Program-made: the position numbers and the translations under genes | The notes under the pieces: generated by a model | Told to the model about the DNA's origin: nothing | Seen by the model: the letters and a program-made list of their open reading frames with translations, nothing else | The model's database searches: none | Part shown: positions 3,001-28,078 of the stretch, piece after piece | How the letters are laid out: each line of letters begins with the position of its first letter | Position numbering within the stretch: the stretch's first letter is position 1 | DNA from: Candidatus Moraniibacteriota bacterium | GTDB lineage: Bacteria > Patescibacteriota > Minisyncoccia > Moranbacterales > UBA1568 | NCBI GenBank assembly: GCA_049290235.1 | Contig: JBATNG010000017.1 | Coordinates: 628-64,627 of the forward strand | Reading direction: 5' to 3' | Length of the DNA stretch: 64,000 nt

Positions 3001-6000
3001 GCAGCTCAACACCGGCATCGCCAATACTGCTCTCTATGTTGACAATCGTGGCACGGGGAGTGGTCTCCGCATCGATGACGAGTCCGGCGATACGACGCCA
3101 TTCATTATTGACGGTCACGGTAGAGTCGGAATTGGAACGACAACAATTTCGGAGGATTCGTCAACTGAACGATTATTTCAAGTCGGGTCCGAGACGAACC
3201 GTGGTAATAGTGTAACTTATGGTGAGGTTGTTTCTAAAGGTCAAAAAGACCTGACAGCTTTGACTGGAATCAAAGATATTTTCGTATATGATACGACGAG
3301 CGACAGCGATGGTGGTCGTTGGATTGACTGGGCGACAACTGATCAGCTTTCCTGGTATTCTGAGTCGCTCGATGACGGCCCAAGTGATCCATGTGACATA
3401 GCCTCGGATGATCGTTGCTACAAAGCAGCGTTCCCTCGAAAGGCTATCTTGATCGTGACAACATCAGCACTCTATATATTCGATGCGCAGGATAATACGA
3501 TGTGGATGAAGTTTAGTCAGAATGCAGCTGGCTATGCTCTGGGTGTCGATACAAGTAATGACCCGTCGAGCGTCACGGCCCTTAACGGCGTTGTATATGT
3601 TGGAACAAATGGAGCGTCGGCTGGTGGGCTTTATGCCATCGACTTCGTCAATGACCGCATGTGGAATTACGATGATACCGATCGCTCAGGCGCAAATGTC
3701 GGGATTAGCAGCCGCAATGCAGCCGTAACATATGCGAGCGATAACAACACGAACTTTGACCTTGGTGGGAATACGGGATGGAAAACTATTAATGATGTCT
3801 CAGCTGCAGCCATTCAGTGGAGCAATACGGCAATCGCTGCGACCACTGGCCCAGTCAACGGAATTTCTTTTGTCGCTCTGGCGACAGATTCGGGGGTTAA
3901 TTTGATCAACCTCGCCCAGCAAAGGCTTTTTCAGTACAGTCGCATCACGGACGATAATTATGAGTCAGTCGTTATTACCAAAAGTGCGAGATTGTATGCC
4001 TTGGACAGTACACGAGATGAGCTCAACATGTGGAATAATGTCGATTCAGATGTGGCAAGCCAACTCAATGTGGCGGCGGATAAAGCATGGGATGAAGCGA
4101 CCAATCCCGCTCTGACCAAGAATACACCGGTGATCGGGACCGGTAGTCCCGATGCACTTGAGGTAATTGAACGCGCCTCACTGGCTGATGGTGGACTTAC
4201 GGCTGGTACTGCGTCGGATCTTATCTACATTGGGCATGACCAGGGATTGACCGAACTCCATGACCACGCCACTCTCGCCTCTGGCTGGGTCAAGTACTAC
4301 AATACCACTCGTCAGACGGCTATACTGCCAGCCGCGACGCGTCGGGCGCATATGATGGATGATGCTTCCGGGGACGTGACCAATCAGAGCGTCGGAACGG
4401 ATATTATGGTACCCAAAGGATCCCCGACCTACGGGGTAAATGGTGTACGTGGTAAAGCGATGAGTTTCAACGGTACCTCGCAGTATCTCTGCTCTGGAAC
4501 AGGTACTACGTGTGCCAACGATACGTCTGATAACCTCAGTACGGGCAGCTGGACTATCAGTGTCTGGTTTAAACATACGGCAGGTACCGTTACCGGTACA
4601 GATACGCTCTTCGCTCGTTGTCACAATACGACGCCAGCCGCTGCGGCGGGCTGTGTCGCAGCATCTATGGTTTCATCGGGTGTTATGACGGTTAATGTTG
4701 ACTTCGACGCTACGTTTACCATTGGTCTGACTGGTACGACAGTCTTCCATAGTAGTACCCAGACATACAATGACGGTCAGTGGCATTTCCTTATGGTGAC
4801 TCGTGCTGCAACTACGGGTGCTATAAATACGATGATCGATGGTAAGCCGATTGGTCAAACTAACGGTGTTAACACAACTCTCGATGCCTCGCAGATCCTT
4901 TCCATCGGCGCTGACTGTAGCGTCGGGGCAGCTTGTGCCACGGGTGCTAACTTCTGGGATGGGTCAATTGATGACTTTGTATTGAATGCAAACGGTAGTA
5001 CCGGTACGACAGATAACATCGCCGTTGCTGCCTTGCGTCGCGTGTACAATGATGCTCGGCCACTCGTCAATAAAAGAGTGGTAGCCGTAACCAATGCCAC
5101 AAGCGCCACAACAACAACCATAACAGATACAGGTGAGACATGGATTCCTAATGAATTCGCTGGGCAGGTGATGGCGATTACATCCGATACTGGTGCGGGT
5201 CAAACGCGTCGGGTCGTTTCTAATACGACAGATACGCTTACCGTGTCTCCAGCATTCTCAACTACCCCGGATACAACTTCAGACTTCGAAGTAGATCCTG
5301 AGGCGGTCTATGGGGCTTCAAATATTGTCACTTCTATTGGTATTACGGCTGAGTCTCCTCTAGGAGAGGCTCGACAAATGTGTATTGGAACCAATAGCAC
5401 CTCGGATACCGGTGGTGTTACTTGCTACAATCACCAAGCTGGGCCAAACCTAATCGCCGATGTTTTTCATAGCGATTCAGAACAAATGGATGATAGTAGT
5501 ACAGAATGGACTGGTACTGATTATGATGATATTCGCTCGATTGATCTTTCGGGTCGGGCGCTTGTTATGGGATCAGAGGCTCATTTCTGGACCGAAACGG
5601 AAGATGTTCGTCTTGGGCAGGGTTTGGATTATCTCGCGAATCAGCTCTTCAACATCCGACAGGAGTTGATAAATGATGCCGTTACCGCTCAGGGTAGTAT
5701 CGGTGTGGAAGTTGGATTTACTGGTGGGGCGGACTTGGCGGAGCGCTACTACTCGAATGAGCCACTTCAAGCGGGGGAAGTAGTGTCTATTGACAAGAGT
5801 CTTTCGGCCGGAGTGAAGAAAACGGCCAGTCGCTATCAGCGCGATACACTCGGTATCGTCTCGACCGAACCAGGGCTCATCCTCGGGGCCGAAGCAGAGA
5901 ACGGCTACCCAATCGCCCTTGTCGGTCGAGTACCGGTCAAAGTCACCAATGAGAATGGTCCCATCTATGCTGGCGATCGAGTGACGGCAGCGAGCCGTCC

Positions 6001-7888: not shown

Positions 7889-8058
7889 TTTGTGTATACA
7901 AAGGAATAAACAGTGATCCTTGACCTCCCATTCCGGGGGGTATCATCGGTAGGCACTTTGACAATTCCGTCGCGTGCCCGCTCACGCGATTGGCTGAATC
8001 AAACCCTGGGACTTTTTCTATTGCTCAAGATGGATTAGTCCATGCTAGACTTATTTGT

Positions 8059-9069
8059 ATGAATCCAAAAGTCTTTGCTTCTATCGTCGCGCTTGTTGGT
8101 GTCGGACTTATCGGTGGCTATTTTGCTCATGACCTCGTGGATGATCGGCGAGAGGGGAGGCATTCGCGTGATTGGTCCGAGATGAACAATACTTCGAAAC
8201 AAGTTCGCCAAATGGGGAACTATTCCTATATCAACCCTCTCCTCGAGTGTGAGGTCGCCGAGGGTACGCTGGATGCGAGAAAGGAGAACTTTCGTGATGT
8301 TCTCGAAATCCGCGTCAATCAACTGAAGAAGGAAAAAAATCTTTCAGAGGTTGCCGTGTATTATCGGGATTTGAATAATGGACCAACGTTTGGTGTCGAC
8401 GAACAAGGGGAATTCTTCCCCGCCTCACTTCTGAAGGTGCCAGTCATGATGGCCTACTATCACCTCGCTGAGCAGGATCCGTCAGTACTGGGCGTGAAGA
8501 TCGCTTATGGACAGCCGCGCGATTTTGGCATCACCCCGACGATCATGCCGCGCGAGAGCCTCGTCCCGGGCGAATCGTATACGGTCGATGATCTCATCCG
8601 GCGGATGATCATCTTTTCCGATAATCAGGCGCTCGCGCTTCTCTCCGAGCGTCTCCCACTCACGGTTCTCCAGGATCTCTTTGCGATGCTCGGGGTGGGA
8701 AGTGATGTACTCGTAAATGCCGATTCCAAGTTGACGGTGAAGGAGTATGCGGGATTCTTCCGAATACTTTTCAATAGTTCGTACCTTTCGCGGGAATCCT
8801 CGGAAAAGGCGCTCGCTCTCCTTTCTTCGACTGACTACAATGACGCGCTTCCGGCAGGTATTCCCAAGGGTGTTGTCGTCTCGCATAAGTTTGGTGAAGC
8901 AGGCACTGCCAATGTAGAACGACAACTCCACGACTGTGGGATTGTGTATTTCCCGAACCATCCCTATCTCGCCTGTATTATGACGCGCGGGCAGGATGTC
9001 GATGAGCTCAAGGACGCTATCGTCGATGTCTCCCAATTCATCTACGAGAAAATCGACGAGCAGTACTAG
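8059..9069 (+). CDS. membrane-anchored serine hydrolase, class A beta-lactamase-like fold
   Basis: ATG at 8059 precedes an N-terminal TM helix (NPKVFASIVALVGVGLIGGYF). SxxK motif at FFPASLLK, SDN motif at FSDNQA, KTG-like box HKFGEAG followed by DCGIVYFP. The ORF track start at 7990 is likely too far upstream. Confidence 0.6.
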   Translation: MNPKVFASIVALVGVGLIGGYFAHDLVDDRREGRHSRDWSEMNNTSKQVRQMGNYSYINPLLECEVAEGTLDARKENFRDVLEIRVNQLKKEKNLSEVAVYYRDLNNGPTFGVDEQGEFFPASLLKVPVMMAYYHLAEQDPSVLGVKIAYGQPRDFGITPTIMPRESLVPGESYTVDDLIRRMIIFSDNQALALLSERLPLTVLQDLFAMLGVGSDVLVNADSKLTVKEYAGFFRILFNSSYLSRESSEKALALLSSTDYNDALPAGIPKGVVVSHKFGEAGTANVERQLHDCGIVYFPNHPYLACIMTRGQDVDELKDAIVDVSQFIYEKIDEQY

Positions 9070-14910: not shown

Positions 14911-14985
<75 letters not shown>

Positions 14986-15168
14986 ACATCAGTATTTCTC
15001 AAGCGACCGGTTCCCATCCGTGGGGAAAGGCCGGAGGGAAGGGAAGAATCGTCACGGAAGGTGGCGATTTTTCTTTCCTCTCACACCGGTTTCATTGCCG
15101 GTCGGCAATCGGATTCGAACCAGGGAAATCTGATTGTATGATATGAAATTTTTATCAACGGTATCAAT

Positions 15169-16326
15169 ATGAATAATCTCAACCCGTATTCAGCTCTATT
15201 CGATGGCGGCAAGAAACGGATCAGATACAACGGAAATAGCGTATTCCAGCCCATTGAGGACGTCAAAGAATCCGATTTCAGCGAAGGGATCACGACAGGA
15301 AGGATCGCGAAGATTTTTCAGGATCCGGAATATTTTTATCACCTTCACAAGGTAGACAATGGGATATTCTTCGGAGCGGTGGAATACTTCCGATCGATCG
15401 ATGCCGAGTGGTGCAATCTTCCCCTCACGACACTCATGATTTCATCTCCGGGAGAAGTGTACGCCGGAAAAACGCTGGATTACACGACCGATACGCTCCC
15501 GGTTGATATATCCTGGTTTGACAATAAGCGGAACGTCTTTCTTTCGGAAAGTTCACAATTCTATCTCGAGCTGAGGCTCCTGACGCAGAATATCGGTAAG
15601 GTCTTTTCCATATATAATTCGTTCAGAAAAGAAAAGGCGGACTTTTGTCATCTTTCGGAGTTCCAGCACATCGAATTCGAGGGGAAGGTTTCTTTTGACC
15701 AGAATATTGATATCTTTCTCGGTTTGATGCGTCACATCACGAAGTATCTTATAGACAATGAGAGAGAAAGCCTGGAGTACTTCATCGGGGAGGAAAAGCT
15801 GAAGGAGCTTGCCGATGCCTTTTCAGAGGGAAATATCGTTACGATTACCTTCAAGGAGGCGCTTGAAGCTCTCCATAAGGAGACCGGGGATGATATGTAC
15901 AAGGAATTCAGCCTGAAAAACTTCGGTGCATGGGAAGAAATAAGACTTACGGAGATATTCGGCAAGCACGTCATTGTGACGAAATTCCCGCTTTTGCAGA
16001 TTCCTTTCTATCACAACGAACTTGAGGAGAATGAGGACGGGGTTCCGCTCGCCGAGAATGCCGATTTCATCCTCTGTGGTTATCGGGAAACCGTCGGAAG
16101 CGGAACGAGAATTTCAAATTCGGAAGCCTTAAAGGAGAAAGCGAAGACTTTCAATCTTCCTATGTCGGATTACGATCCGTATATTCAGACCCGTCTGAGG
16201 GAAGGGTATCAAAAGACTTCCGGTTTCGGTCTCGGATGGCAGCGGTATGTGCAATGGGTATTACAGTTGCCATATATATGGGAAGCGACACATATACCGC
16301 GAGGACATCATCTCCCTAAGCCGTAA
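15169..16326 (+). CDS. AsnA-type asparagine synthetase / class II aaRS-like catalytic core without an anticodon-binding domain
   Basis: Motif-2-like FRKEKADFCHLSEFQHIEFEG, motif-3-like GSGTRI...GFGLGWQRYVQWVLQLPYIWE. The C-terminus resembles AsnA ([22 protein letters not shown]). No N-terminal OB-fold. Confidence 0.6.
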   Translation: MNNLNPYSALFDGGKKRIRYNGNSVFQPIEDVKESDFSEGITTGRIAKIFQDPEYFYHLHKVDNGIFFGAVEYFRSIDAEWCNLPLTTLMISSPGEVYAGKTLDYTTDTLPVDISWFDNKRNVFLSESSQFYLELRLLTQNIGKVFSIYNSFRKEKADFCHLSEFQHIEFEGKVSFDQNIDIFLGLMRHITKYLIDNERESLEYFIGEEKLKELADAFSEGNIVTITFKEALEALHKETGDDMYKEFSLKNFGAWEEIRLTEIFGKHVIVTKFPLLQIPFYHNELEENEDGVPLAENADFILCGYRETVGSGTRISNSEALKEKAKTFNLPMSDYDPYIQTRLREGYQKTSGFGLGWQRYVQWVLQLPYIWEATHIPRGHHLPKP

Positions 16327-16339
16327 AATCAATAAATAT

Positions 16340-17182
16340 ATGGATCAGAAGACCTTCGATAATTTTTTTCAGCCATACGCAAAAAATGTCGACAAAGCCG
16401 ACGATGTGAGCGCCTTTTGGCGACTCTCTGATGCATTGATCATGGAGATTATCAAGGAAAGTATCGGAAAGCATTGTTCCGAGCAATCAGCTGTATGTGA
16501 TGCGGGGGGTGGGACTGGACGGTGGGTGGTGAAGATGAGCATAGAGATTCCCGGAAAATTCATGGTCTACGATCGCTCGGTCGATATGCTCGCAAAAGCG
16601 AAAGAAAATATTGAAAAAGCCGGCCTTTCCGATAAGGTAACGCTCGTTCAGGGAGACTTGACCGATATGAAGAGTATTGAAAGCGAGTCGATCGATCATA
16701 TCGTGAGTATTTACAGCCCGATAAGCTTCATTTCCGAGAACGGAAAGGCAGCTTCGGAAATGTATCGTGTTCTCAAAAAAGGAGGGAGAATTCTTCTTAT
16801 GGGACACAGTTACTATAATGCGCTTGCGTCGAAAGTGAACAATTATCGGGCCGATTCCGAAGAGCTCGCGCGGCTCTCGGAAGAATATCGGGTGAAGTGG
16901 GCACCATATGTCCCTGAGCTGGTGACTTTTTCGAAGGAGAGTATGGAGTCTCTCTTGAAAACGGCTGGCTTCCGAATTGAGAAAACATACGGCGTTCCGG
17001 TGTTCGTTCAGCCCGGTCCGGAAGATTTTGATCCGGAGAACGAGAAGGTGAGCGCGGTGTCAACCTATCTGGAGAATCCGGACGTATTCAAGCAGATATT
17101 CGATTTGGAAATGGAACACAACAGCAGGGATACAGTTGCCAATCGGGGGATGAACATATTCACTCTAGCCACAAAGATATGA
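16340..17182 (+). CDS. class I SAM-dependent methyltransferase
   Basis: Motif I VCDAGGGTGRW, motif post-I VYDRSVDML, LVQGDLTDM. ATG at 16340 lies just after the upstream stop at 16324-16326. Confidence 0.7.
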   Translation: MDQKTFDNFFQPYAKNVDKADDVSAFWRLSDALIMEIIKESIGKHCSEQSAVCDAGGGTGRWVVKMSIEIPGKFMVYDRSVDMLAKAKENIEKAGLSDKVTLVQGDLTDMKSIESESIDHIVSIYSPISFISENGKAASEMYRVLKKGGRILLMGHSYYNALASKVNNYRADSEELARLSEEYRVKWAPYVPELVTFSKESMESLLKTAGFRIEKTYGVPVFVQPGPEDFDPENEKVSAVSTYLENPDVFKQIFDLEMEHNSRDTVANRGMNIFTLATKI

Positions 17183-18204
17183 AAGAGCTTATAAACCCGA
17201 AGCAACTTCAGAAGGGAGACCTCATTTCTATCGTTTCTCCATCCGCCGGACTAGGAGAACTTTTCCCTCATCGGGTAAAAGATGGTATTCGGGCTTTGGA
17301 AAGGATGAGTTTTTGTGTCAAGGTGGAGAAAAACGCGCTTGGTCGGAAGGGGTGGGTGTCCGGAACGGTTGAAGAGCGAATCGAGGATTTGCATTCAGCT
17401 TTTTCCAATCCCGAAGTGAAATGTGTCATGGCATCTATCGGCGGCGATCATAGCAACCAGCTTCTCAAGCATATCGATTACGATCTCATACGGAACAATC
17501 CGAAGATATTTATCGGTTACTCCGATATTTCCGTGCTTCATTACGCACTGCAGTCCAAGGCTGGACTCCGAACATTTTATGGACCGTGTCTCATATCGGA
17601 ATTCGGGGAATATCCGGATGTTCTTGATTATACGAAAGACTCGTTCATGAAAACTCTCGTCGATGGGTCGTTTGGAGAGATTCGCGCATCGGAAGAATGG
17701 ACTGATGATTTTTTGGACTGGTTCAATCAAGAGAACCACACAAAGAAAAGGACGCTGTATCCATCGGGCGGTTATGAATGGTGGAAAGAAGGCCGCGCGG
17801 AGGGGCGGATTCTCGGGGGATGCGTTCCATCGATCAATCACACATTGGGGACCGAGTATTGGATTGACCCTCGAGGAGCTTTGTTTTTCATTGATATCCC
17901 GGAAGGGGGGCCGGGAGAACCGATGGACATGGCCGCACTGGATTCGTTTTTTGCTGATTTGGATAACGCGAAGACGTTTGAGAATATCTCCGGTCTTATT
18001 ATCGGCAGACCGTACAGGTTTTCGGAAGAATTGCACTCCGAACTGAAGGGACTCGTCTTGAAATATGCCGGTTCATATGGTTATCCTATCCTCTATAATG
18101 CAAATATAGGGCACTGCGCGCCGAGTATCACGCTTCCGTTCGGAGCGCTTGCAGAGGCCGACTCTTCGCGGAATCTTTTTCGGATTGCTGAATCGTGGGT
18201 TTGA
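17179..18204 (+). CDS. LD-carboxypeptidase, peptidase family S66 (LdcA / microcin C7 immunity MccF family)
   Basis: Resembles S66 (LdcA/MccF) family; no specific catalytic motif could be pinned down by eye. Confidence 0.65.
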   Translation: MKELINPKQLQKGDLISIVSPSAGLGELFPHRVKDGIRALERMSFCVKVEKNALGRKGWVSGTVEERIEDLHSAFSNPEVKCVMASIGGDHSNQLLKHIDYDLIRNNPKIFIGYSDISVLHYALQSKAGLRTFYGPCLISEFGEYPDVLDYTKDSFMKTLVDGSFGEIRASEEWTDDFLDWFNQENHTKKRTLYPSGGYEWWKEGRAEGRILGGCVPSINHTLGTEYWIDPRGALFFIDIPEGGPGEPMDMAALDSFFADLDNAKTFENISGLIIGRPYRFSEELHSELKGLVLKYAGSYGYPILYNANIGHCAPSITLPFGALAEADSSRNLFRIAESWV

Positions 18205-18230
18205 TAACGTGGAATAGTGTAAAAAAATTA

Positions 18231-18266
18231 CCCGCCGTCAGATACTCGTGACGGCGGGCGTTTTTT
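18231..18266. terminator. bidirectional rho-independent terminator between convergent genes
   Basis: cccgccgtca-gatactcg-tgacggcggg flanked by aaaaaaa (18221-18227) and tttttt (18261-18266). Confidence 0.65.
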
Positions 18267-19515
18267 ATGCGAAAGGAAACGGAATGACATCGCGAACATT
18301 CTGTTTTCCTCGAGGGAGAAGGAGCATTGCGAGACGTGTCACACCGAGACCAAACCCGGAAATCGGCGGTATGCCGATTCTAAGAAGGTCCAGATACCCA
18401 GTATTTATGGGGACTTCAGATTCTTCGTGCTGCTCTTGAAGTCGCTGTCGCATAGCGCCCTCATCGTTCTCGTCTACCGACATAGTAGCGATATGCATCC
18501 CTTTAGCGACAAGTACGGCTTGGTTTGCGCGATCGTCCATGACCCTACAGAATGGATTGAATCCAGTCGGCATATCCATTATGAAGGTTGGATTGTCGAA
18601 CCGCGGGGCTATGATTTTCGTGAGCGCCTTGTATATGCTGGTGAATCCAGGCATATCTTTTGAGAAGAGATCTGGGCGCAGGCTGATCAATTCCTCGATT
18701 GAACAGCATTCTCGGCCGAAGGCCGAGGCGAGTGCCTCATTGAAGGTGGTTCGTTTCGGGGAGGCAGAAAACGCGTCACCCAATGGTTCGACTCCGACAC
18801 TACTCCTACTCGCCGCGGCGAGTTCATTGAGGATTTCGGTAATGACGTCCAGTGAGTCGTCGAGCGAGTCGCTGACCCTGTACGCTTCCAGGATGCCGAA
18901 CTCAGGATAGTGCGTTGCGTTGATGCCTTCGTTTCGGAACGAGTGAGTCATTTCATACACCCGTTCAAACCCTCCGGCAATGAGCTTTTTGAGTTTTATC
19001 TCCGATGTCATCGAGAGATGGTACTCACGGCCGTTTGCATTGCATTTTGTCGAGAAGGAATTCGCGAGACCGGCATCGAAACTATCCTGCAGGACCCCGG
19101 TATCGAATTCAAGATATCCGTTGTTCTGAAGAACTGTCCGGACGCGTCGATTCATATCGGCGATGACTTTGAAGAGGCCGAAAGAATCCTGGTTTCCAAT
19201 GAGACCGATGACGCGATTATCGTATTCCGTCCGACTGTTCACTCCGTTGTATTTGTCGGGCAGCTCGATGCGGCATATCGACACGATCTTGGCAGAATAT
19301 ACGGCTATAGACGGTGTCCCTGTGCCGCTTGTCGTACGTGTGCCTTCGATGGATATGATCGATCCCGCAGGGAGATTGGCGATTTCCCTGTAGTTTCCAA
19401 TTATTTTCTTTGTGAGAATGAACTGGGTATCCTGCTCCTGAAAGCGAACTTTTAGAAAACAGATGCCACCCATATTTCGTTTTGCGAGGATTCTCGCGTA
19501 TCCGGTGACGTCCAT
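18265..19515 (-). CDS. class IIb aminoacyl-tRNA synthetase paralogue, LysRS-like (compact, 416 aa)
   Basis: N-terminal OB-fold (GYARILAKRNMGGICFLKVRFQ...FILTK), motif 2 FRNEGINATHYPEFGILEAY, motif 3 GFGLGVTRLAMLLL. Confidence 0.7.
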   Translation of the reverse strand: MDVTGYARILAKRNMGGICFLKVRFQEQDTQFILTKKIIGNYREIANLPAGSIISIEGTRTTSGTGTPSIAVYSAKIVSICRIELPDKYNGVNSRTEYDNRVIGLIGNQDSFGLFKVIADMNRRVRTVLQNNGYLEFDTGVLQDSFDAGLANSFSTKCNANGREYHLSMTSEIKLKKLIAGGFERVYEMTHSFRNEGINATHYPEFGILEAYRVSDSLDDSLDVITEILNELAAASRSSVGVEPLGDAFSASPKRTTFNEALASAFGRECCSIEELISLRPDLFSKDMPGFTSIYKALTKIIAPRFDNPTFIMDMPTGFNPFCRVMDDRANQAVLVAKGMHIATMSVDENDEGAMRQRLQEQHEESEVPINTGYLDLLRIGIPPISGFGLGVTRLAMLLLPRGKQNVRDVIPFPFA

Positions 19516-19659
19516 GATGAAATTCTCCTCGGTTGGTTGTTAAAGTTCAACGAGGAAGTATATGTTTAAAATGATCCTTTGTCAACGGCATCTCATTGAC
19601 ACGAGGTTCTGTTTCTGATACGGATTAGATAGGTAGAAATTCTGTCCGAGGAGGATGAG

Positions 19660-20562
19660 ATGAAAATTATTCGGCAAAGTTCTTTTACATATCCGATTGG
19701 CCTAAGAGAGAAATGGCGAGACGAAGTCTTCCAGCCATTAGTTGATCACAAGTTCAGGTTGTTGCTTTCCGACGGGAATACCATCGAAGCGGGAGTATTT
19801 GAGCTTTTGGTGGACGAAACGAAAGAAATCCACGCATGCATTTCAACGCAGGCGGGATGTAAATTCGGGTGTGCCATGTGCACCTCCGGCAGGGAGGGCT
19901 TTTCAAGGAACCTCACAAAGGGAGAAATTCTTTGCCAGATACGACTCCTTTCTGGCGCGGCAGGAATCAGAATGTTCGACCATATCGTTTTTATGGGCAT
20001 AGGTGAGCCGCTTGATAATTACGACAACTTTGTCGGAAGCGTTACGGATTTGGTGAATAGCGATGCTTCTTATGCTGGTCGGCTTTCATTCGCGACCGTC
20101 GGGCTCCCTCAGAAGCTACTCCGATTGTCACGGGAACCGATCCCAGCATTCCGAATGCTTTGGATATCGCTCCATGCGCCAACGGATGAAAAGCGCGCAC
20201 AGATCATGCCGGTTGATAAAGCGTTCAGCATTCTTGAAATACTCGGAGCCGCAAAAGAATTCGCCAACCGTGTATCAACGGAAGTATGGATTAACTACAT
20301 GCTTTTCCAAGGATTCAACGACGGTGTCGATGATGCGAAATCGTTCGCGGGTCTCCTGACTGGAACGGAGAGTACTTTCTCCGTGATGATTACTGAGCCC
20401 AATAACGATCTTGCGCAGTATCGGGGAGCTGATGTTTCGGACTTGAAAAGGTTTGAGGGCTATCTCCGATCTGCAGGAGTAAAAAATCGGATCGCTCGAT
20501 TTATTGCGGCGGGGAAACAAGTGAACGCCGGTTGTGGAGAATTCGTCTTCACCCGCATGTAG
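19660..20562 (+). CDS. RlmN/Cfr-family radical SAM methyltransferase homologue, N-terminally truncated relative to RlmN/Cfr
   Basis: CxxxCxxC cluster ACISTQAGCKFGCAMCTSG. MGIGEPLDN. The C-terminal conserved Cys sits in GCGEF. Colinear with Cfr/RlmN from the radical-SAM core to the C-terminus. Confidence 0.7.
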   Translation: MKIIRQSSFTYPIGLREKWRDEVFQPLVDHKFRLLLSDGNTIEAGVFELLVDETKEIHACISTQAGCKFGCAMCTSGREGFSRNLTKGEILCQIRLLSGAAGIRMFDHIVFMGIGEPLDNYDNFVGSVTDLVNSDASYAGRLSFATVGLPQKLLRLSREPIPAFRMLWISLHAPTDEKRAQIMPVDKAFSILEILGAAKEFANRVSTEVWINYMLFQGFNDGVDDAKSFAGLLTGTESTFSVMITEPNNDLAQYRGADVSDLKRFEGYLRSAGVKNRIARFIAAGKQVNAGCGEFVFTRM

Positions 20563-20579
20563 TGTGATTTTCCGTGTTT

Positions 20580-20611
20580 GCCCCAAGGGTTTCCCTTGGG
20601 GCATTTTTTTC
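20580..20611 (+). terminator. rho-independent terminator
   Basis: gccccaaggg-ttt-cccttggggc followed by attttttt. Confidence 0.7.
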
Positions 20612-21003: not shown

Positions 21004-21588
21004 ATGAAAAAAGACTATCTTTTAGACCTCATGCGATCCAAGAAGACGGTTTTTACGTTTAAGGACCTGGTTTTGCTTTGGGGAGAGTCTGATGTGAGTT
21101 TTGTGAAGAAGAAGATTCATCGCTATGTGAAGGCCGGTAAAATGAACGCTGTACGCAGGGGTATTTATTCTAAGGACAAGAATTATGATAAATATGAGCT
21201 GGCTACAAAAGTATATACTCCCTCATATGTCAGCATGGAAACAGCTTTAGGTGCCGCCGGAATTACGTTCCAGTTGTACGGTCAGATTTTTGTTGCTTCC
21301 TATACCACCAAAGAAATTGAGTGCGACGGACAGAGGTATTCTTATAAAAAAATAAAGGGTACCATTCTCACTAATCAGGTTGGCATAGAATCAAGAGAAA
21401 ATTATAGTATTGCTTCGCCTGAGAGAGCATTTTTGGATGTCATTTACCTCAACCAGGACTATCATTTTGACAACCTCTCGGCTTTACATTGGGAAAAGGT
21501 ATATGACATTTTACCTATATATGACGGTAATAAACGTATGGCCAGAATGGTGAAAATGTACTATGAAGCATGTAAGAAAGACTTTTAA
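21004..21588 (+). CDS. AbiEi-family type IV toxin-antitoxin antitoxin / transcriptional regulator
   Basis: Size and position immediately upstream of the AbiEii-like nucleotidyltransferase. N-terminal wHTH-like region FTFKDLVLLWGESDVSFVKKKIHRYVKAGKMNAVRRGIY. Confidence 0.5.
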   Translation: MKKDYLLDLMRSKKTVFTFKDLVLLWGESDVSFVKKKIHRYVKAGKMNAVRRGIYSKDKNYDKYELATKVYTPSYVSMETALGAAGITFQLYGQIFVASYTTKEIECDGQRYSYKKIKGTILTNQVGIESRENYSIASPERAFLDVIYLNQDYHFDNLSALHWEKVYDILPIYDGNKRMARMVKMYYEACKKDF

Positions 21589-21599
21589 AAAAATATCAT

Positions 21600-22310
21600 A
21601 TGGCTCTGGATACCGCAAAGCATAAAAATATCCTGGTAAAAATCCTGAAGGATATTTACACTGACGTCACTATCAGTCCAGCGCTGGGATTCAAAGGCGG
21701 AACAGCGGCTACTTTTTTCTATGGACTTGATCGCTTCTCGGTGGATTTGGATTTTGATTTGCTTGATGCAGAAAAGGAAATTCTTGTGTTTGAGCGAGTC
21801 AAAGTCATACTGGAGAAGTATGGCACTCTCAAAGAAGCGCGGACAAAAAGATTCAATCTTCTCTACGTGCTCTCATATAATGACAAGGACATCAATGCTC
21901 AAAACGTGAAAGTGGAAATAAATCGTCGGGAGTATGGCTCGCGATATACGGTGGAGTCATTCCTGGGTATTTCTATGCAGGTCATGGTCAAAGAAGATAT
22001 GGTGGCGCATAAGCTCTGTGCTATGCTCGAACGCATCGGTAAAACCAATCGTGATATTTTTGATGTGCAGTTTTTTCTTGCTCACGACTGGCCGGTTAAT
22101 AGGAAAATTATCGAGGATCGTATGGGCGTTTCGTATGCAGATTTTTTGAAAAAGTGTATCGATGCGATGGAAAAGTTCAATGACAACAACATTCTTTCCG
22201 GTATGGGCGAGTTACTCACCGAAAAACAGAAAGCCTGGGCCAAGGCCAAGTTGAAGCCAGAAGCATTGTTTTTACTCAGGTTGGCTTTGGAGAAGGAGAC
22301 GTATCCATAA
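21600..22310 (+). CDS. AbiEii/AbiGii-family nucleotidyltransferase toxin (DUF1814-like)
   Basis: NTase motif GFKGGTAATFFYGLDRFSVDLDFDL (hG[GS] ... DhDh). Confidence 0.6.
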   Translation: MALDTAKHKNILVKILKDIYTDVTISPALGFKGGTAATFFYGLDRFSVDLDFDLLDAEKEILVFERVKVILEKYGTLKEARTKRFNLLYVLSYNDKDINAQNVKVEINRREYGSRYTVESFLGISMQVMVKEDMVAHKLCAMLERIGKTNRDIFDVQFFLAHDWPVNRKIIEDRMGVSYADFLKKCIDAMEKFNDNNILSGMGELLTEKQKAWAKAKLKPEALFLLRLALEKETYP

Positions 22311-22517: not shown

Positions 22518-24671
22518 ATGTCCGTGCTTACTCGACAACAGCGAGTGGATTTATTTCAATCTTTTTTTCGCGGGAGAGAAGATGTTTTTGCTATCCGCTT
22601 CCAAAAAGTAGGGACAGATATCTCCGGATATACGCCGGTATTTACCGATCGAGGAAAAACAGAATACAAAACAATCACACAGAGCGACATCGAGAACCAT
22701 CTGCTTGGTAACGTGACACTCGGTATCTATCCGCTACTAAAAGCTAATACGTCATATTTCATTGCTGCAGATTTTGATGAGAAAGAGTGGAAACGAGATG
22801 CAAAAGCCTTTTATGATACCTGTAGGAAGCACGGAATAGATGTTGCTTTGGAAGTTTCCCGATCTGGAAATGGGGCTCACATATGGTGTTTTTTCGATAG
22901 GCCCTATCCTGCTTCGAGGTCGAGAAGAATTTTTCTTACCTTGCTTCGTCAAGCGAAGTGTATTGATGATTACTTTCATGATGAGAGTTTTGATCGTTTA
23001 TTCCCGAACCAGGATATGCATTCAGGGAAGGGTCTGGGTAATCTCATCGCATTACCGCTGCAAGGGAAGTCAAGAAAAGAAAATAAAACTGAATTCATTG
23101 ATCCGAAAACATTCCTTCCATTTCCTGACCAGTGGGATTTTTTGTCTGGTCTCAAAAAGATTTCTGTAGAAAAACTGGATGAGTTGTATGAAAATCTCTG
23201 TCAAAAAGGGAATACTTTGAAAGAGCAGGCGACTTTTAGTCAAAATACCCCGATGTGTATCGAGCTTTCAGCTCTGCTGAAGATTCCGAAGCAGCAGGTT
23301 ACACCGGTGCTCATGACGTATTTACGGGAAAAGTTGAATTTTTTCAATAGCGAATATATAGCCAAGTCGAAAATCGGATTTTCGACGCATGGGGTGGAGA
23401 AGTTTTTTAAGACGGTATGCTCCGACGATGATTTTGTATATATTCCTCGCGGATACCTTGAAATGGTAACGGTCTTTCTTCGGGAGCAGGGTATCGACTT
23501 TGAGGTTGTAGACAAATATTTGGTTTTAGAGGATGTTGAGCTGGATATTTCACTTCCTTTGTATCGATATCAGCAAGAAGCAGTAGAGAGTTTCGTGGGA
23601 AAAAACCAGGGGATGCTGATCGCTCCGCCCGGGAGCGGGAAGACTCTTATGGGACTTGCTATCGCTCTTTCCAAAAAGCAGCCGACGCTCATTATTGTAC
23701 ACCGGAAGAATATCCTCGAGCAGTGGGTCGAGAGCATCCATAACTTTCTCGGGATTCAAAAAAAGGAAATCGGAAAATACGGAGGCACAACCAAGAAAAT
23801 CAAACAACCGTTCACAGTTGCCATGATGCAGACACTTGCGAGAGCAAAAGAAAAGGATGAAATACTGAAGCATTTCGGCTGTGTGATAGTGGATGAATGC
23901 CATCATGTGCCAGCCAAGATGTTCCGGAAAGTGATCTCGTGTGTTTCGTCGAAATACCTTTTCGGACTGACGGCGACGCCGAAGCGGAAATACAACGATC
24001 AGAAATTAATTTCTGCTTACCTAGGTGAGACCATCTATGAAGTTTCCGGTGCTTATCGAGAGGAAAGCAGTGCTCTGGTGAATCCGGGCTCAGCGAATAT
24101 TTCCGTTGTTGTTCTGAAAAGTGATTTTCTCATTCCTTATGAATTCGGCGCAAGGGATTTTGCACATATTTTGAAGCTCACCTCTTTCGATACGCGGAGA
24201 AATAAAATGATTGCCGACGTCATACAAAGCGAAGTTTCACAAAAAAGGAAAGTATTGGTGATAGCGGAAAGAAAATAGCACATCGAGTCGCTTCGGTATT
24301 TCTTGAAGAAGAGTGTGGATATACTGGTCATGACCGGGACTCTCTCGGCTCGACAGAAAAAGTATCGGAGCACCAGAATGGGCAATGGGACGTTTCAGGT
24401 CATACTTGCGACAGGGCAGTTCTTTGGAGAAGGGGTGGATGTGGTACATTTCGACTCGCTTTTTATTGTCTCGCCGATTTCTTTCGAAGGAAAGCTGATC
24501 CAGTACATCGGTCGGTTACAGCGAGGCAGCAGAGAGAAGAAAGTGTTCGACATCTGTGATCCCGAGGTGAAAATGCTTGAAAAGATGTTCAAGAAGAGAG
24601 TGACGGTGTATAACAAATTAGCGAAAGCTGGTCAGATAACTTTTACAGAGCAAGCGAAGGACTTGTTATGA
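22518..24671 (+). pseudogene. Prim-Pol (archaeo-eukaryotic primase-like) N-terminal domain fused to SF2 DEAD/DEAH-type helicase; reading frame interrupted by a single in-frame TAG at 24276-24278
   Basis: PrimPol-like LGIYPLLKANTSYFIAADFDEKEW...LEVSRSGNGAHIWCFF. Helicase motif I APPGSGKT, II DECHH, III LTATP. After the TAG, in the same frame: VLVATGQFFGEGVDVVHFDSLFIV..QYIGRLQRGS (motifs V-VI). The ORF track shows this as 22518-24278 and 24303-24671, both in frame 0. Confidence 0.6.
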
Positions 24672-24740: not shown

Positions 24741-24836
24741 CAGGTGACTGTTTATCACTTGGTCACAGGTTTACATCCAAAGGATGAAAAGTTTATGCCC
24801 TTTAGGGTAAATCCTGTCGCCGGAGCATAGAGAACG
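24741..24836 (+). repeat. third partial tRNA-Asn copy (anticodon arm to 3' end) with a roughly 36-nt insertion in the T-loop
   Basis: caggtgactgtttatcacttggtcacagg-tttacatccaaaggatgaaaagtttatgccctttagggtaaat-cctgtcgccggagca. Compare the tRNA 14937-14985. Confidence 0.6.
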
Positions 24837-24942
24837 AGGCTGTAGCAAGCCTTGTTCTCTTTATCACTTCTATTGGAGTTCGAAGCTGGTATACTTGAAT
24901 TTACAGAAAAGGTTATTACTAATTTTCTATTGTTTCTGTATG

Positions 24943-25368
24943 GCTACAATAAATCCTTGGATTAACTTCAACGGTAATGCTGAAGAGGCATTTACTTTTT
25001 ATAAATCTGTTTTTGGCGGAGAGTTTGCTAAGGTGGTGCGTTTCAAAGATATCGCGAGTGATGAATTCCCTGTGGCAGAAAAAGAAGAAAATAAAATGAT
25101 GCATATTGCTTTACCTATTGGTAACAGCACTCTGTTGATAGCCAATGATGTTCCGGAGGTTCTGGGGCGAGTAAATGAGCATGAAAATCGAAGCAAAATT
25201 TTGGTAAGTACGGAAAGTAAAGAAGAGGCGGACAGATTATTTCATGGCCTTTCGGCCGGAGGAGAAGTGGAGGGATCTATGGGTGACAGTCCGTGGGGAT
25301 CATATGCGGGTATGTTTCGAGATAAATACGGTATTGAGTGGATCATTGAATTTTCTCCTAGTAATTGA
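24943..25368 (+). CDS. VOC/glyoxalase-fold protein, PhnB-like
   Basis: MATINPWINFNGNAEEAFTFYKSVFGG is typical of the PhnB-like family. ATG at 24943. Confidence 0.6.
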   Translation, partial: ATINPWINFNGNAEEAFTFYKSVFGGEFAKVVRFKDIASDEFPVAEKEENKMMHIALPIGNSTLLIANDVPEVLGRVNEHENRSKILVSTESKEEADRLFHGLSAGGEVEGSMGDSPWGSYAGMFRDKYGIEWIIEFSPSN

Positions 25369-25405
25369 AATACGTGAGGGGATATAACAATAATCTTGCT
25401 TTTGA

Positions 25406-25455
25406 ATCACCGTTCTGACGGCCCTCTCAGGCGGGCAGGCCTTCACGATGCGGAG
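25406..25455 (+). promoter_or_regulatory. conserved 50-nt non-coding leader element, copy a (upstream of the RibD_C gene)
   Basis: atcaccgttctRacgKcYctctcaggcgggcaggcYttcaYgatgcgRag is shared with 28113-28162 at about 88 percent identity. Confidence 0.4.
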
Positions 25456-25491
25456 GGAATTAGCCTGAAAATTCTTCGTTATAATAACCCT

Positions 25492-26091
25492 ATGAGAAAA
25501 ATTATTGTCCTGTCTTTTATTACATTGGACGGTGTCATGCAGGCGCCGGGCGGACCCGAGGAAGATACCTCGGGTGGCTTCAAGTACGGTGGGTGGACGG
25601 TGCCCTATTTTGATGACTTTTCAGGAGAGGTTATGGCAGAGCAAATGGGCCGACCCTTCGATTTGTTACTGGGCAGAAAAACTTACGAGATATTTGCCGG
25701 GTATTGGCCCGAGCATAATGACGAAGGCGGAGTGCCACTCAATAATGCAATCAAATATGTGGCTTCAAACACGCTCAAAAAACTGGAATGGAATAACTCG
25801 ATACTTTTGAAAAATAATGTTGTCGAAGAAATAAAAAAACTGAAGGAACAGGACGGTCCGGATTTGCATGTTCACGGGAGCGGTAACTTTATCCAGACGC
25901 TCATGAAGCATGATTTGGTCGATGAATTTTGGCTCAAAATATTTCCTGTGACACTTGGTGCAGGCAAGCGCCTCTTTGCCGATGGTACGATTCCAGTAGC
26001 TTTCAAACTAACAGACAGCAAAATTTCACCAAGCGGAGTCATCATCGCCAATTATAAACGCGCGGGAGAAGTGAAAACCGGCTCGTTTTGA
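25492..26091 (+). CDS. dihydrofolate reductase-family protein (RibD C-terminal domain, YwjB-like)
   Basis: MRKIIVLSFITLDGVMQAPGGPEED...GRKTYEIFAGYWP...LHVHGSGNFIQTL. ATG at 25492. Confidence 0.65.
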   Translation: MRKIIVLSFITLDGVMQAPGGPEEDTSGGFKYGGWTVPYFDDFSGEVMAEQMGRPFDLLLGRKTYEIFAGYWPEHNDEGGVPLNNAIKYVASNTLKKLEWNNSILLKNNVVEEIKKLKEQDGPDLHVHGSGNFIQTLMKHDLVDEFWLKIFPVTLGAGKRLFADGTIPVAFKLTDSKISPSGVIIANYKRAGEVKTGSF

Positions 26092-26204
26092 TACGAGGTG
26101 GATATTCACTAGTGTGGACATCTGAAATTGAGGCTTACCGAGGCCTCTTTTTTGTCTGATCCGGGAGGGCGTATAATTCAGGTATAAACAGTAACCCAGG
26201 CCGT

Positions 26205-26549
26205 ATGAAAAAATTCTTGGTTTTGTATCTCGTGCCCGTGGCGACTCTTGAGGCGTGGATGAAGACTGATCCTGAAACACGGCAGGCAGAGGAGGGCAAG
26301 ATGAAAGAGGAGTGGAGTGTGTGGATGAAGGAACATGGGGCAGCCATGAAGGAAACATGGGGAGCGGGGAAAACAAAGCTAGTAACCAAAGGAGGCACGA
26401 GCGATATCAAAAACGACGTTATGCTGTTCTCAATTGTGGAAGCGGAGTCAGCGGAAGCGGCAGCGAAACCTTTTGAGAGTCATCCACATCTCGGGATCCC
26501 AGAGGCGTCGATTGAGATCATGCCCATGAATGATCTCTCAGGCATGTGA
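26205..26549 (+). CDS. hypothetical protein
   Basis: ORF with plausible start; no recognised motif. Confidence 0.35.
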   Translation: MKKFLVLYLVPVATLEAWMKTDPETRQAEEGKMKEEWSVWMKEHGAAMKETWGAGKTKLVTKGGTSDIKNDVMLFSIVEAESAEAAAKPFESHPHLGIPEASIEIMPMNDLSGM

Positions 26550-26618
26550 TTGGTTTCCACGTCAGTTGATACGATTGAGATGAAAGTTCGAACAAGGCGA
26601 TAGTCACTAACGCAGAGC

Positions 26619-26957
26619 ATGAACATCTCAAGGACAAGATTCGTTATCAGCTTCCTTATCGCTGCCTTTGCCTTCTTGTTTATCTCGAACGCGCTTTTTG
26701 GGACGGAGGCTCGACTCTTTCCTCAGCCGCCCGAGTCTTTCTTGGGCACGGATTCACCCATCGTTTGGAAGAGTATTGGGTATAAAACTCTCTTGCCGAT
26801 CAAAATTGTTTTGATCGGACCCATGCTTCCCTTTATCAATTTTTTGCGCCAAGAGCCGGATACGCCACCACCATTTTTTGTCATCGGGTTTGCGATCTAC
26901 TGGTCAATCCTTGCCCTATTCCTTCATTACCTTCTCGGTAAGAAGAAACACGCTTAA
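26619..26957 (+). CDS. small hypothetical membrane protein
   Basis: Three predicted hydrophobic helices. Confidence 0.35.
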   Translation: MNISRTRFVISFLIAAFAFLFISNALFGTEARLFPQPPESFLGTDSPIVWKSIGYKTLLPIKIVLIGPMLPFINFLRQEPDTPPPFFVIGFAIYWSILALFLHYLLGKKKHA

Positions 26958-26996
26958 CGCATCATTAGTTTCTCTCCATTAAAATCCCAGTCTAGC

Positions 26997-27473
26997 GTGA
27001 AATCTATGAAGAACAGTGAAGCAGCATTTCGCTGGATTATCGAAATATTCAAACGCCACGGACTACCTTTTGTTGTCCTCGGGGGCTTGGCGGCCCGAGC
27101 CTATGGTTCGACCCGCGAGCTGAACGATATTGATCTCGTCATTCACAGAGACAATTTCGAACGCATCCTTCCCGAGGTACGGGAGTATATCACTTTCGGG
27201 CCAGAAATGAGCCAGGATGAAGAAGCGGAAGGGTATTCTATGGTTCTTCAATACAAGGAGCAAGACATCGATATTGGAGCCGAGGAAGATTGCAAGATTT
27301 TCAACCAAGCAACTGGCCAGTGGGAACTCTTGGAAACGGACTTCAATAATGTAGACCTGAAAGAAGTCTTCGGGATCACGGTTCCTGTTATGAAGAAAGA
27401 AGCCATCATTACTGAAAAACTCAAGTTCAACCGGCCAGTGGATCACGAGGATATCAAACAAATGCAGAGTTAG
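26997..27473 (+). CDS. small nucleotidyltransferase, Lnu(A)/LinA-like
   Basis: FVVLGGLAARAYGSTRELNDIDLVIHRD compares with the Lnu(A) motif LDGGWGVDVL..REHRDIDIDFD. Size 158 aa. Confidence 0.5.
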   Translation: MKSMKNSEAAFRWIIEIFKRHGLPFVVLGGLAARAYGSTRELNDIDLVIHRDNFERILPEVREYITFGPEMSQDEEAEGYSMVLQYKEQDIDIGAEEDCKIFNQATGQWELLETDFNNVDLKEVFGITVPVMKKEAIITEKLKFNRPVDHEDIKQMQS

Positions 27474-27496
27474 AACCTGGTACGCTAGATAAACAT

Positions 27497-28078
27497 ATGC
27501 AAGAGCAATACTACAAGAGCTTAGAAACTTACGAGGACTGGGGAGCTCACAAGTCAGCAGTCTTGAGTATGATTGAGGAACAGGACAGGGAAGTTGTAGA
27601 GCAGGCGATAGGAATAGTAGAAAAGTATCACAATACTCCAAGAACTCTGTATACAGGAAACTACAATCGTCATCCCGTGAGAGTAGCAAGAATTCTGTTA
27701 GAAGAGTTTGATGTGAAGGATGCAAGAGCCGTTTTAATTGCTCTTTGCCACGACTTGGGGGAGTGGTCGGAATATGATGTGAAGAATCTCGAAAATGAAT
27801 TTGGAGCTGATGTAAAATCGGGTGTTGAAACTCTAACCTGGAATGCAGGCGATACGTGGGATTCATTCTTTCAAAGAATTGTTGCCACGAAGAACGATGA
27901 CCTCATAAAGGTCAAAATGGCGGATAAACTGGACAACAATAGGTCAGCTGTGTTTTCTAGTGAGGCTGAGAAAAAGAAGGCCAGAGAGAAGACGGAAAAA
28001 ATCCTACGACCCTTTGTGGAGAAGAACTACCCAGATTACTGGAAGAAACTTGAAGAATCCTTGCGGGCATTAGCCTAG
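27497..28078 (+). CDS. HD-domain hydrolase, RelA/SpoT hydrolase-domain-like (small alarmone hydrolase type)
   Basis: HPVRVARIL...ALCHDLGE and KMADKLDN (compare SpoT KLADRLHN). Confidence 0.55.
   Translation: MQEQYYKSLETYEDWGAHKSAVLSMIEEQDREVVEQAIGIVEKYHNTPRTLYTGNYNRHPVRVARILLEEFDVKDARAVLIALCHDLGEWSEYDVKNLENEFGADVKSGVETLTWNAGDTWDSFFQRIVATKNDDLIKVKMADKLDNNRSAVFSSEAEKKKAREKTEKILRPFVEKNYPDYWKKLEESLRALA

Follow-up and report, generated by a model that had tools for sequence, protein, structure and literature searches.

Within a 64,000-nucleotide stretch of the genome of a Candidatus Moraniibacteriota bacterium (contig JBATNG010000017.1, positions 628 to 64,627, of assembly GCA_049290235.1; hereafter the window), we analyzed a cassette of five genes, referred to here as A to E, that occupies positions 15169-20562 and specifies relatives of two different aminoacyl-tRNA synthetases (aaRSs), a methyltransferase, a peptidase and a radical S-adenosylmethionine (SAM) enzyme. 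The open reading frame (ORF) list places the five genes where a preliminary description, made by a model from the sequence alone, had put them, and their products are identical to the public proteins MFZ1654603-07 from a metagenome-assembled genome of this lineage, which belongs to the candidate phyla radiation (CPR). In the NCBI annotation A and D are each named "amino acid--tRNA ligase-related protein", B "class I SAM-dependent methyltransferase", C "S66 peptidase family protein", and E "radical SAM protein". The public gene call starts B at 16340 and not at 16247, and the start of C overlaps the stop of B by 4 bases. Terminator-like hairpins and a promoter-like site divide the cassette into three transcription units, consisting of the co-directional genes A, B and C, of D, and of E (Table 1). 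(A nine-codon ORF, MKFLSTVSI, at 15143-15172 that runs over the A start codon shows no conservation among relatives and is probably meaningless.) In profile searches each protein matched the family to which the preliminary description had assigned it but scored well below the corresponding curated equivalog cutoff. Because all five scores fall so far under these cutoffs, we regard the proteins as divergent paralogues rather than as housekeeping enzymes.

Table 1 The five-gene cassette and the flanking features of the island that carries it (window coordinates)
Feature	Position	Strand	Evidence
tRNA-Asn (GTT), left boundary and attachment site of the island	14911..14985	+	ARAGORN
A, AsnRS-derived catalytic core, 385 aa, without anticodon-binding domain	15169..16326	+	PF00152, E 1.4e-26
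B, class I SAM-dependent methyltransferase, 280 aa	16340..17182	+	Profile matches, public gene call
C, MccF-type S66 serine peptidase, 341 aa	17179..18204	+	Both Peptidase_S66 domains, PF02016 and PF17676
Bidirectional terminator-like hairpin between convergent C and D	18230..18259	.	10-11 bp stem, 8 GC pairs, T-runs on both strands
D, LysRS-derived protein, 416 aa	18265..19515	-	LysRS-like profile match, OB fold
Promoter-like site upstream of D	19557..19585	-	11/12 consensus positions; consensus match only
E, RlmN/Cfr-type (class A) radical-SAM methylase, 300 aa	19660..20562	+	Profile matches, BLASTP against RlmN
Terminator-like hairpin 3' of E	20579..20603	+	Hairpin scan
AbiEi/AbiEii toxin-antitoxin (abortive-infection) pair	21004..22310	+	PADLOC AbiEi 198 bits, AbiEii 257 bits; Pfam AbiEii
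PrimPol (archaeo-eukaryotic primase)-helicase, island replication module, split in two ORFs	22518..24671	+	ORFs 22518-24278 and 24303-24671
Degenerate direct repeat of tRNA-Asn (anticodon arm to acceptor/3' end), with internal insertion; right boundary	24741..24828	+	Exact 17-18 nt matches, alignment

The best NCBIfam match of A was asparaginyl-tRNA synthetase (AsnRS; 131 bits against a cutoff of 414), and only the catalytic domain aligned. In particular, A is collinear with the catalytic domain of E. coli AsnRS from about residue 125 of the latter onward, and its N-terminus consists of only ~55 unrelated residues, with no N-terminal OB-fold anticodon-binding domain. Residues R153 and E155 of motif 2, the metal-ligand acidic pair D299 and E307, R314, and R359 of motif 3 are invariant in the A family, as are the segments FRKE...HLSEFQHIEFE, GSGTR and GFGLGWQR, and the segment SSQFYLE aligns with SGQLNGE of AsnRS, an AsnRS-type element. 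Thus, motifs 1-3, the acidic metal-ligand pair and the AsnRS-type amino-acid pocket by which AsnRS is recognized among class II enzymes are all found in A. Consistent with these findings, an AlphaFold2 (AF2) model of A (predicted local distance difference test, pLDDT, 88.5) gave its best fold matches to the AsnRS structures 1x54 and 9sh8 (TM ~0.75), and neither AsnA nor the archaeal enzyme AS-AR was among the top 50. These results show that the active site of A is intact, adenylate-forming and of the AsnRS type, and A is predicted to be an Asn/Asp-activating adenylate-forming ligase. The preliminary description had called A an AsnA-type core; the core without an anticodon-binding domain is as described, but its type is that of AsnRS and not that of E. 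coli AsnA. A shares with archaeal AS-AR (3p8t) and with E. coli AsnA a class II aaRS core that lacks an anticodon-binding domain, as well as an Asp/Asn and ATP site. It differs in scoring 105 bits against an equivalog cutoff of 389 (NF005055, a near full-length match), in matching 3p8t only in the C-terminal part (phmmer E 8e-4), in being ~90 aa longer than that 294-residue chain, and in its constant association with a methyltransferase, to which it is fused in one case, and with an S66 peptidase.

C had been placed in the MccF family of S66 peptidases, named for the microcin C (McC) immunity protein, and comparison with the LdcA branch of S66 upholds that placement. C scored 163 bits against MccF over its full length and 54 bits against E. 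coli LdcA. Chains of MccF or MccF-like proteins in the PDB were matched over the full length (E 1e-46 to 1e-57), whereas LdcA-type chains were matched partially (1e-13), and C is 31% identical to the plasmid-borne MccF of E. coli (E 7e-52). In 32 of 32 S66 proteins encoded by cassettes of this kind, Ser118 and His311 are invariant and Glu243 is D or E, which preserves the Ser-His-acid triad across the two S66 domains. C also retains Trp186, the adenine-stacking residue of MccF (PMC8323819). We rejected this residue as an MccF-specific marker because E. coli LdcA has an aligned Trp too. Together, the scores and alignments indicate that C is of the MccF type and not of the LdcA type.

To define the unit to which these genes belong, we used an alignment of the A family in an independent metagenome scan, which yielded 48 loci. 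The S66 gene lies no more than 5.5 kb from A in 27 of the 27 loci that have at least 2.2 kb downstream of A, and a methyltransferase gene lies between the two in every locus examined. A second aaRS-like gene comes next, usually in convergent orientation, in 15 of the 23 loci that have at least 3.6 kb downstream (in 2 of these it is D, and in 13 it is a gene of another family, c2, described below). All five genes, in the order A-B-C-E-D, are found in other Moranbacteria genomes of a distant lineage (54% identity to the window for B and C, 47% for E, 37% for D and 27% for A), whose A gene represents a second subfamily, A2. The same five-gene order occurs on a contig of 7.3 kb that binning had assigned to Desulfonauticus submarinus (L006, GCA_053937255.1); that cassette is 72-81% identical to the Moranbacteria GWC2 version, and the contig may be a mis-binned CPR contig or reflect a recent horizontal transfer. 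In a cassette closely related to that of the window (79% identity in A), c2 replaces D and E, and E is confined to the cassettes of the window lineage, of the second Moranbacteria lineage and of a single Paceibacterota locus. Cassettes interchange two subfamilies of A, two of the methyltransferase and two types of second aaRS-like gene; some have two S66 genes, and in one lineage (P0224) A is fused to B. The A family itself is patchily distributed and numbers only hundreds of clusters; the complete catalytic site is kept and strongly conserved across the family (55-93% identity). These findings demonstrate that the invariant core of the cassette is A, the methyltransferase and the S66 peptidase, and that D or c2, and E, are swappable accessories. 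The neighbourhood pointed out in the preliminary description is therefore conserved elsewhere, as a three-gene core with exchangeable partners and not as a fixed set of five.

Several individual loci have features of their own. On low-GC contigs (25-35%; L131-L141, e.g. L134 10001-11125), the A homologues have 7-20 TGA codons in frame and hardly any TAA or TAG, and the cassette is therefore also present in UGA-recoded CPR lineages. Cassettes of the A2 type (L088 11029-12321; L008 7458-8780 and 12122-12580) are accompanied by a divergent PurD-like ATP-grasp enzyme, and L008 additionally contains RpiB and a second ATP-grasp enzyme, which hints at ribosylamine- or nucleoside-type chemistry in the A2 variants. 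In L095 (1161-9554) we found genes for RNHCP, a ThiF-family enzyme, an aromatic amino-acid lyase, an unknown protein (519 aa), an A::B fusion, a second methyltransferase and an S66 peptidase; here a ThiF-family enzyme that is not detectably MccB-like co-occurs with the aaRS-derived ligase.

The methyltransferase slot provides a second connection to microcin C. Profile matches agree with the earlier assignment of B to the class I SAM-dependent methyltransferases, and B occupies the slot that is held in sister cassettes by homologues of MccD. Indeed, in at least 10 sister loci, among them the Paceibacterota locus with E, this slot contains an MccD homologue that aligns with the E. coli protein over its full length (E 2e-31, 29% identity across 268 aa), and three cassette loci contain a gene of the ornithine/diaminopimelate-decarboxylase family, like the N-domain of MccE. 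In the McC pathway, MccD, an enzyme with the class I methyltransferase fold, transfers the 3-amino-3-carboxypropyl group of SAM to the phosphate of the peptidyl-adenylate, the N-domain of MccE then decarboxylates that group, and MccF hydrolyses the toxic isoasparaginyl-adenylate (PMC8323819, PMC12250964).

D scored 228.6 bits against a cutoff of 468 as a LysRS-like protein and gave a weak match to an OB-fold profile; in its AF2 model the OB barrel is confident, and the OB residues R13, F20 and Q31 are common to, and invariant with, true LysRS. To compare the active sites we mapped D onto the sequence of E. coli LysU and aligned 12 members of the D family with 6 canonical LysRS proteins. Residues E240 (E172 of D), R262, E264, H270, F274, E278, Y280 and R480, in LysU numbering, are kept throughout the D family. 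However, E414 is replaced by V, A, I or F and E421 by H or N in all 12 members, whereas the 6 canonical enzymes all have E or Q at the first of these positions and E at the second. In D of the window the changes are E414->V, E421->H, N424->T, F426->S and E428->D, none of which is present in the 6 canonical sequences. We take E414 and E421 of LysU to be the class II acidic pair that binds the catalytic Mg2+. D thus has the OB fold and motifs 2 and 3 of a LysRS, as had been noted for this compact, convergently transcribed paralogue, but not the metal-ligand glutamates, the full lysine pocket or the family score. Since no member of the family has either of the metal-ligand glutamates, D cannot be a working lysS, which bears on two roles raised in the preliminary description: it is neither the sole lysS of the genome nor a second functional aaRS copy. 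D is instead a conserved, re-purposed LysRS scaffold that may still bind lysine, an adenine nucleotide or tRNA. As a LysRS derivative with an altered active site, D recalls EpmA (PoxA), the LysRS-like lysylase of elongation factor P (EF-P); EpmA consists of the LysRS catalytic domain alone, whereas D has an OB fold and reaches only 102 bits where the EpmA cutoff is 287.

In most cassettes the slot of D is occupied by c2, an unannotated family of ~380 aa encoded 3' of the S66 gene and usually convergent with it (e.g. L097 13063-14238 and L093 11028-12203, both on the minus strand, and 17 other copies). Members of c2 share a conserved C-terminus, RxAGIGYY...GGxTDW...GxGTEL, and 10 of 16 gave weak Pfam matches to histidyl-tRNA synthetase (HisRS). 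Profile searches with c2 matched no solved structure and detected no tRNA-binding domain; c2 had no hhalign similarity to the D/LysRS alignment and did not align to E. coli HisRS. We therefore regard its aaRS-like nature as tentative, although c2 may be a new HisRS/HisZ-like paralogue: it resembles HisZ, the regulatory HisRS paralogue, in its weak HisRS-like similarity and in a scaffold that is apparently re-purposed. Neither HisG nor EF-P, the contexts of HisZ and EpmA, is found here, and the E414->V and E421->H replacements are specific to the D family, unlike HisZ and EpmA. Beyond the cassette, none of the 20 other window ORFs whose families were scanned is an aaRS gene.

E had been described as an N-terminally shortened radical-SAM enzyme of the RlmN/Cfr family, and its cysteines and the length of its relatives confirm this. 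It scored 162.6 bits against an RlmN cutoff of 290 and 128 against a Cfr cutoff of 530, and BLASTP aligned it with E. coli RlmN across the whole core (31% identity). C60 of E corresponds to C118 of RlmN, C67/C71/C74 to C125/C129/C132, and C292 to C355; in an alignment of 37 sequences of the E family the first four are invariant and C292 is at least 90% conserved. E therefore shares with RlmN and Cfr the CxxxCxxC cluster and both mechanistic cysteines (the equivalents of C118 and C355). It differs in lacking the RlmN_N domain (PF21016): the alignment begins at RlmN residue 118 with only 59 residues of E before it, E is ~58 N-terminal residues shorter than RlmN, and all of more than 100 sequence clusters in the family are ~300 aa in length. 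The shortening is thus a family trait and not a mis-called start, and E is not a housekeeping RlmN with a start-site error, the outcome that would have spoken against the preliminary description.

The genes that surround members of the E family set it further apart from RlmN and Cfr, which are lone housekeeping or resistance genes, whereas E lies beside aaRS paralogues, peptidases and other tailoring enzymes. (Note that a profile search of genome contigs with the E-family alignment was dominated by housekeeping RlmN, and only 1 of 80 loci, L008, contained a family member.) At locus L002 (325-8948), an E homologue (66% identical) lies with an S51 (MccG-type) peptidase, two SPASM-type radical-SAM enzymes and three genes of the prolyl-tRNA synthetase (ProRS) type. 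Two of the three specify full-length ProRSs, with scores of 578 and 526 bits (cutoff 437); the third is ProRS-like, of the bacterial type and truncated (409 aa). S51 peptidases such as MccG are the other enzymes known to cleave isoaspartyl-nucleotides (PMC9239234). The L002 cluster resembles a proline-type counterpart of the window cassette and is perhaps a ProRS-inhibitor cluster with a resistant copy. Other members of the E family are found with ThiF, with B12-dependent and SPASM radical-SAM enzymes, and with methyltransferase, kinase, NUDIX and Maf genes, and one adjoins the gene for a CCA-adding enzyme. These neighbourhoods resemble biosynthetic clusters or mobile DNA and not ribosomal contexts.

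The MccF-type peptidase, the MccD homologues of sister cassettes and the S51 peptidase beside ProRS paralogues raise the possibility that the cassette directs the peptide-free synthesis of a microcin-C-like aminoacyl-nucleotide together with immunity to it, a reading to which we assign a probability of roughly 0.45. Of the proposals in the preliminary description, biosynthesis of an aminoacyl-nucleoside with self-immunity is the one that these data support best. According to this model, A would bind ATP together with Asn or Asp, a pair of substrates that is also joined by MccB, and would build the aminoacyl-nucleotide scaffold, presumably as a stable compound with a P-N or amide linkage; the chemistry of MccB has a single obligatory residue, which is asparagine (PMC8323819). 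B would decorate the scaffold with SAM, as suggested by the A::B fusion and by the true MccD homologues in the same slot. E, by analogy with nucleobase tailoring in cytidine-type McC, would methylate an sp2 carbon, in the simplest case C2 or C8 of adenine, and C, as a member of the MccF family, would cleave the aminoacyl-nucleotide amide bond and so protect the producer. The predicted product would be an Asp- or Asn-adenylate mimic that poisons a class II aminoacyl-tRNA synthetase. D, the weakest part of the model, can probably still bind lysine, an adenine nucleotide and perhaps the anticodon loop of a tRNA, would not carry out canonical Mg-dependent activation, and may act as a binding, sequestering or regulatory partner.

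In its layout the cassette has several parallels with mcc clusters, which are built from a core of MccA, MccB and MccC together with MccD, MccE and MccF. Both place an MccF-type S66 peptidase beside SAM-dependent tailoring enzymes, both involve chemistry around asparagine or aspartate and ATP, and both have a gene content that evolves by module swapping; sister cassettes add the full-length MccD homologue and sometimes the MccE-N-domain-like decarboxylase. The mcc plasmid locus of E. coli also contains one convergent gene, which is mccF there and D or c2 here. The cassette differs in that an AsnRS-derived core takes the place of MccB as the adenylate-forming enzyme, in its CPR hosts, and, in the window, in the lack of a ThiF-type MccB, a precursor peptide and an MccC exporter, in a methyltransferase that is not an MccD homologue, and in the extra LysRS- and RlmN-derived genes. 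The ascamycin and albomycin clusters (PMC12945691, PMC9032320) offer another parallel, in that aaRS-related genes reside in a cluster for an aminoacyl-nucleoside-type inhibitor along with self-protection. Those clusters are actinomycete, they build unrelated scaffolds (sulfamoyl-adenosine and a thionucleoside-siderophore), and their extra aaRS copies are functional, whereas D is catalytically degenerate and of an amino-acid type unlike that of A. We found no description of this gene combination in the literature.

A number of observations weigh against synthesis of an McC-like compound. First, with regard to a precursor peptide such as MccA, which ends in Asn, no conserved short ORF was found upstream of A in 19 loci, and the window has only a 9-aa ORF that ends in Ile. 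Second, tblastn searches with E. coli MccB (ThiF-like) and MccC as queries matched none of the cassette loci at E 1e-6, and the window island contains neither an MccB/ThiF nor an MccC gene; no exporter is encoded on the island or conserved near the cassette. Third, BLASTP of B against MccD gave an E of 2.9, and hhalign matched the SAM-binding core only. (We rejected orthology of the window B to MccD on these grounds.) Fourth, E is present in a minority of cassettes and hence is inessential to the core chemistry. Fifth, a resistant copy of the target would be expected to be AspRS- or AsnRS-like, whereas D is LysRS-like and c2 weakly HisRS-like, and the OB-fold residues that D keeps in common with true LysRS also fit a tRNA-directed function. 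Finally, we infer every substrate, the product and the role of D, and A might conceivably carry out a reaction like that of AS-AR or AsnA, in which beta-aspartyl-AMP and an amine give a product that is not a nucleotide.

The OB fold of D leads to the reading that we consider next, in which the cassette modifies RNA or protein. Here the OB fold of D would bind a tRNA with a class IIb-type U35 anticodon, A would aminoacylate a nucleoside or the 3' end of this RNA, or a protein, methyl groups would be added to the same RNA by B and by E (which would write m2A or m8A), and C would remove the aminoacyl mark. aaRS paralogues that modify tRNA or EF-P, namely GluQRS and EpmA, are established precedents. 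In addition to the confident OB barrel with its LysRS-like residues, this reading draws on the characterized relatives of E, all of which act on rRNA or tRNA, on the E homologue that adjoins a CCA-adding enzyme gene, and on CmoM, a tRNA methyltransferase that is closer to B than any other E. coli protein, albeit at only 21% identity. It accords poorly with the cassettes themselves: most have c2, in which no tRNA-binding domain was detected, in place of D, most lack E, and E itself lacks the N-terminal domain of RlmN and Cfr. Moreover, module swapping and carriage on an island are unusual for modification of the translation machinery, and the relatives MccD and MccF act on small aminoacyl-nucleotides (PMC8323819). 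We consider modification of RNA or protein unlikely.

Synthesis of an aminoacyl-nucleotide can also be set against a role in resistance only, directed at translation inhibitors from outside the cell, in which C would hydrolyse McC-like compounds, B would methylate and thereby inactivate them, A and D would be aaRS decoys that titrate adenylate mimics, and E would be a Cfr-like ribosome methylase. Many bacteria owe McC resistance to homologues of MccF and MccG that stand alone (PMC8323819, PMC9239234), D, with its degenerate active site, resembles a binding protein, some cassettes have their two S66 copies, and the window copy lies on a mobile island beside another defence gene pair. A decoy, though, needs no catalytic site, and A keeps a complete one across its family; the A::B fusion and the strict order of A, methyltransferase and S66 gene point to a pathway, and enzymes of the MccD type are biosynthetic tailoring enzymes and not resistance factors (PMC8323819). 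E is without the N-terminal domain of Cfr, and its scores lie under every Cfr cutoff. A resistance module had been the other proposal of the preliminary description: its MccF component stands, but nothing supports E as a Cfr-like, ribosome-protecting methylase, and D is no functional aaRS copy. On balance, resistance as the sole function seems rather improbable. We give similarly little weight to a variant in which the cassette is an intracellular small-molecule toxin-antidote system, acting in addiction or abortive infection; A would make an aaRS poison that needs no carrier peptide or exporter, C and the dead LysRS-like protein, as a "sponge", would hold it in check, and E would be the first RlmN-type enzyme to act on a free nucleotide.

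Metabolic or cell-wall patching of a reduced genome, which the preliminary description had offered as a simpler alternative and in which A would be an asparagine synthetase like AS-AR or AsnA, or a ligase that amidates a peptidoglycan stem peptide, C an LD-carboxypeptidase that serves to recycle murein, D an additional LysRS and E the RlmN of the organism, would suit the AS-AR architecture of A with its near full-length NF005055 match, the membership of LdcA in S66, the Mur ligase and MurL genes that adjoin the cassette in one lineage and the reduced genomes of CPR bacteria, but it is very unlikely because A is fused to a methyltransferase in one lineage and constantly linked to an S66 gene, and it also conflicts with five scores far under the equivalog cutoffs, the absence of any housekeeping name for these proteins in the NCBI Prokaryotic Genome Annotation Pipeline (PGAP), the loss of both metal-ligand glutamates in D, the preference of C for MccF over LdcA, the AsnRS fold of A, the patchy A family, here on a mobile island, and the biosynthetic-cluster-like or mobile contexts of the E family.

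The cassette of the window is carried by an element of ~9.8 kb that lies between tRNA-Asn and the degenerate repeat and whose cargo consists of the five genes, the AbiEi/AbiEii pair and the split PrimPol-helicase. G+C content inside the element is 43-49%, down from ~55%; the repeat at ~24741-24828 is not itself a tRNA, and no integrase was seen on the element. The Helicase_C part of the PrimPol-helicase (24303-24671) is apart from the main ORF (22518-24278), which could reflect a frameshift or decay of the replication module. The AbiEi/AbiEii pair is part of the island context and lies outside the cassette. PADLOC, which covers known anti-phage defence systems, returned no matches for A, C, D and E and only a generic methyltransferase domain for B, and we rejected the idea that the cassette is a known defence system, as no PADLOC system matched. 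The preliminary description had also remarked on the insertion at tRNA-Asn of an island that carries an asparagine enzyme. Because the module has no tRNA next to it in the 14 other loci that were scanned, we rejected a functional tie between the two and attribute their proximity to the use of tRNA-Asn as an attachment site and not to biology. A second low-GC stretch lies past the repeat, at window positions 24895-28078, and contains a glyoxalase/3-dmu-9_3-mt gene, a RibD_C gene, a nucleotidyltransferase fragment and an HD-domain gene; this stretch may stem from another, earlier insertion into that site. Upstream, the core genome includes a giant ORF of 2371 aa (209-7324) and a gene of the Beta-lactamase2 family (7990-9069).

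The cassette is mobile, occurs widely among CPR bacteria, and puts three translation enzymes to new uses, providing what appear to be cases of an AsnRS core used as a ligase, a LysRS without its metal site, and an RlmN/Cfr methylase without its RNA-binding domain. Mining for McC-like clusters has been anchored on MccB (PMC12250964) and would miss the whole family. If our favoured interpretation of the cassette as a source of aminoacyl-nucleotides is correct, then it would represent a second, independent enzymatic route to warheads of the microcin C type, one that is built on a tRNA synthetase core and uses neither a ThiF enzyme nor a ribosomal peptide, and it would extend aminoacyl-nucleotide antibiotics to the CPR bacteria, about whose chemical ecology and interactions with host cells next to nothing is known.

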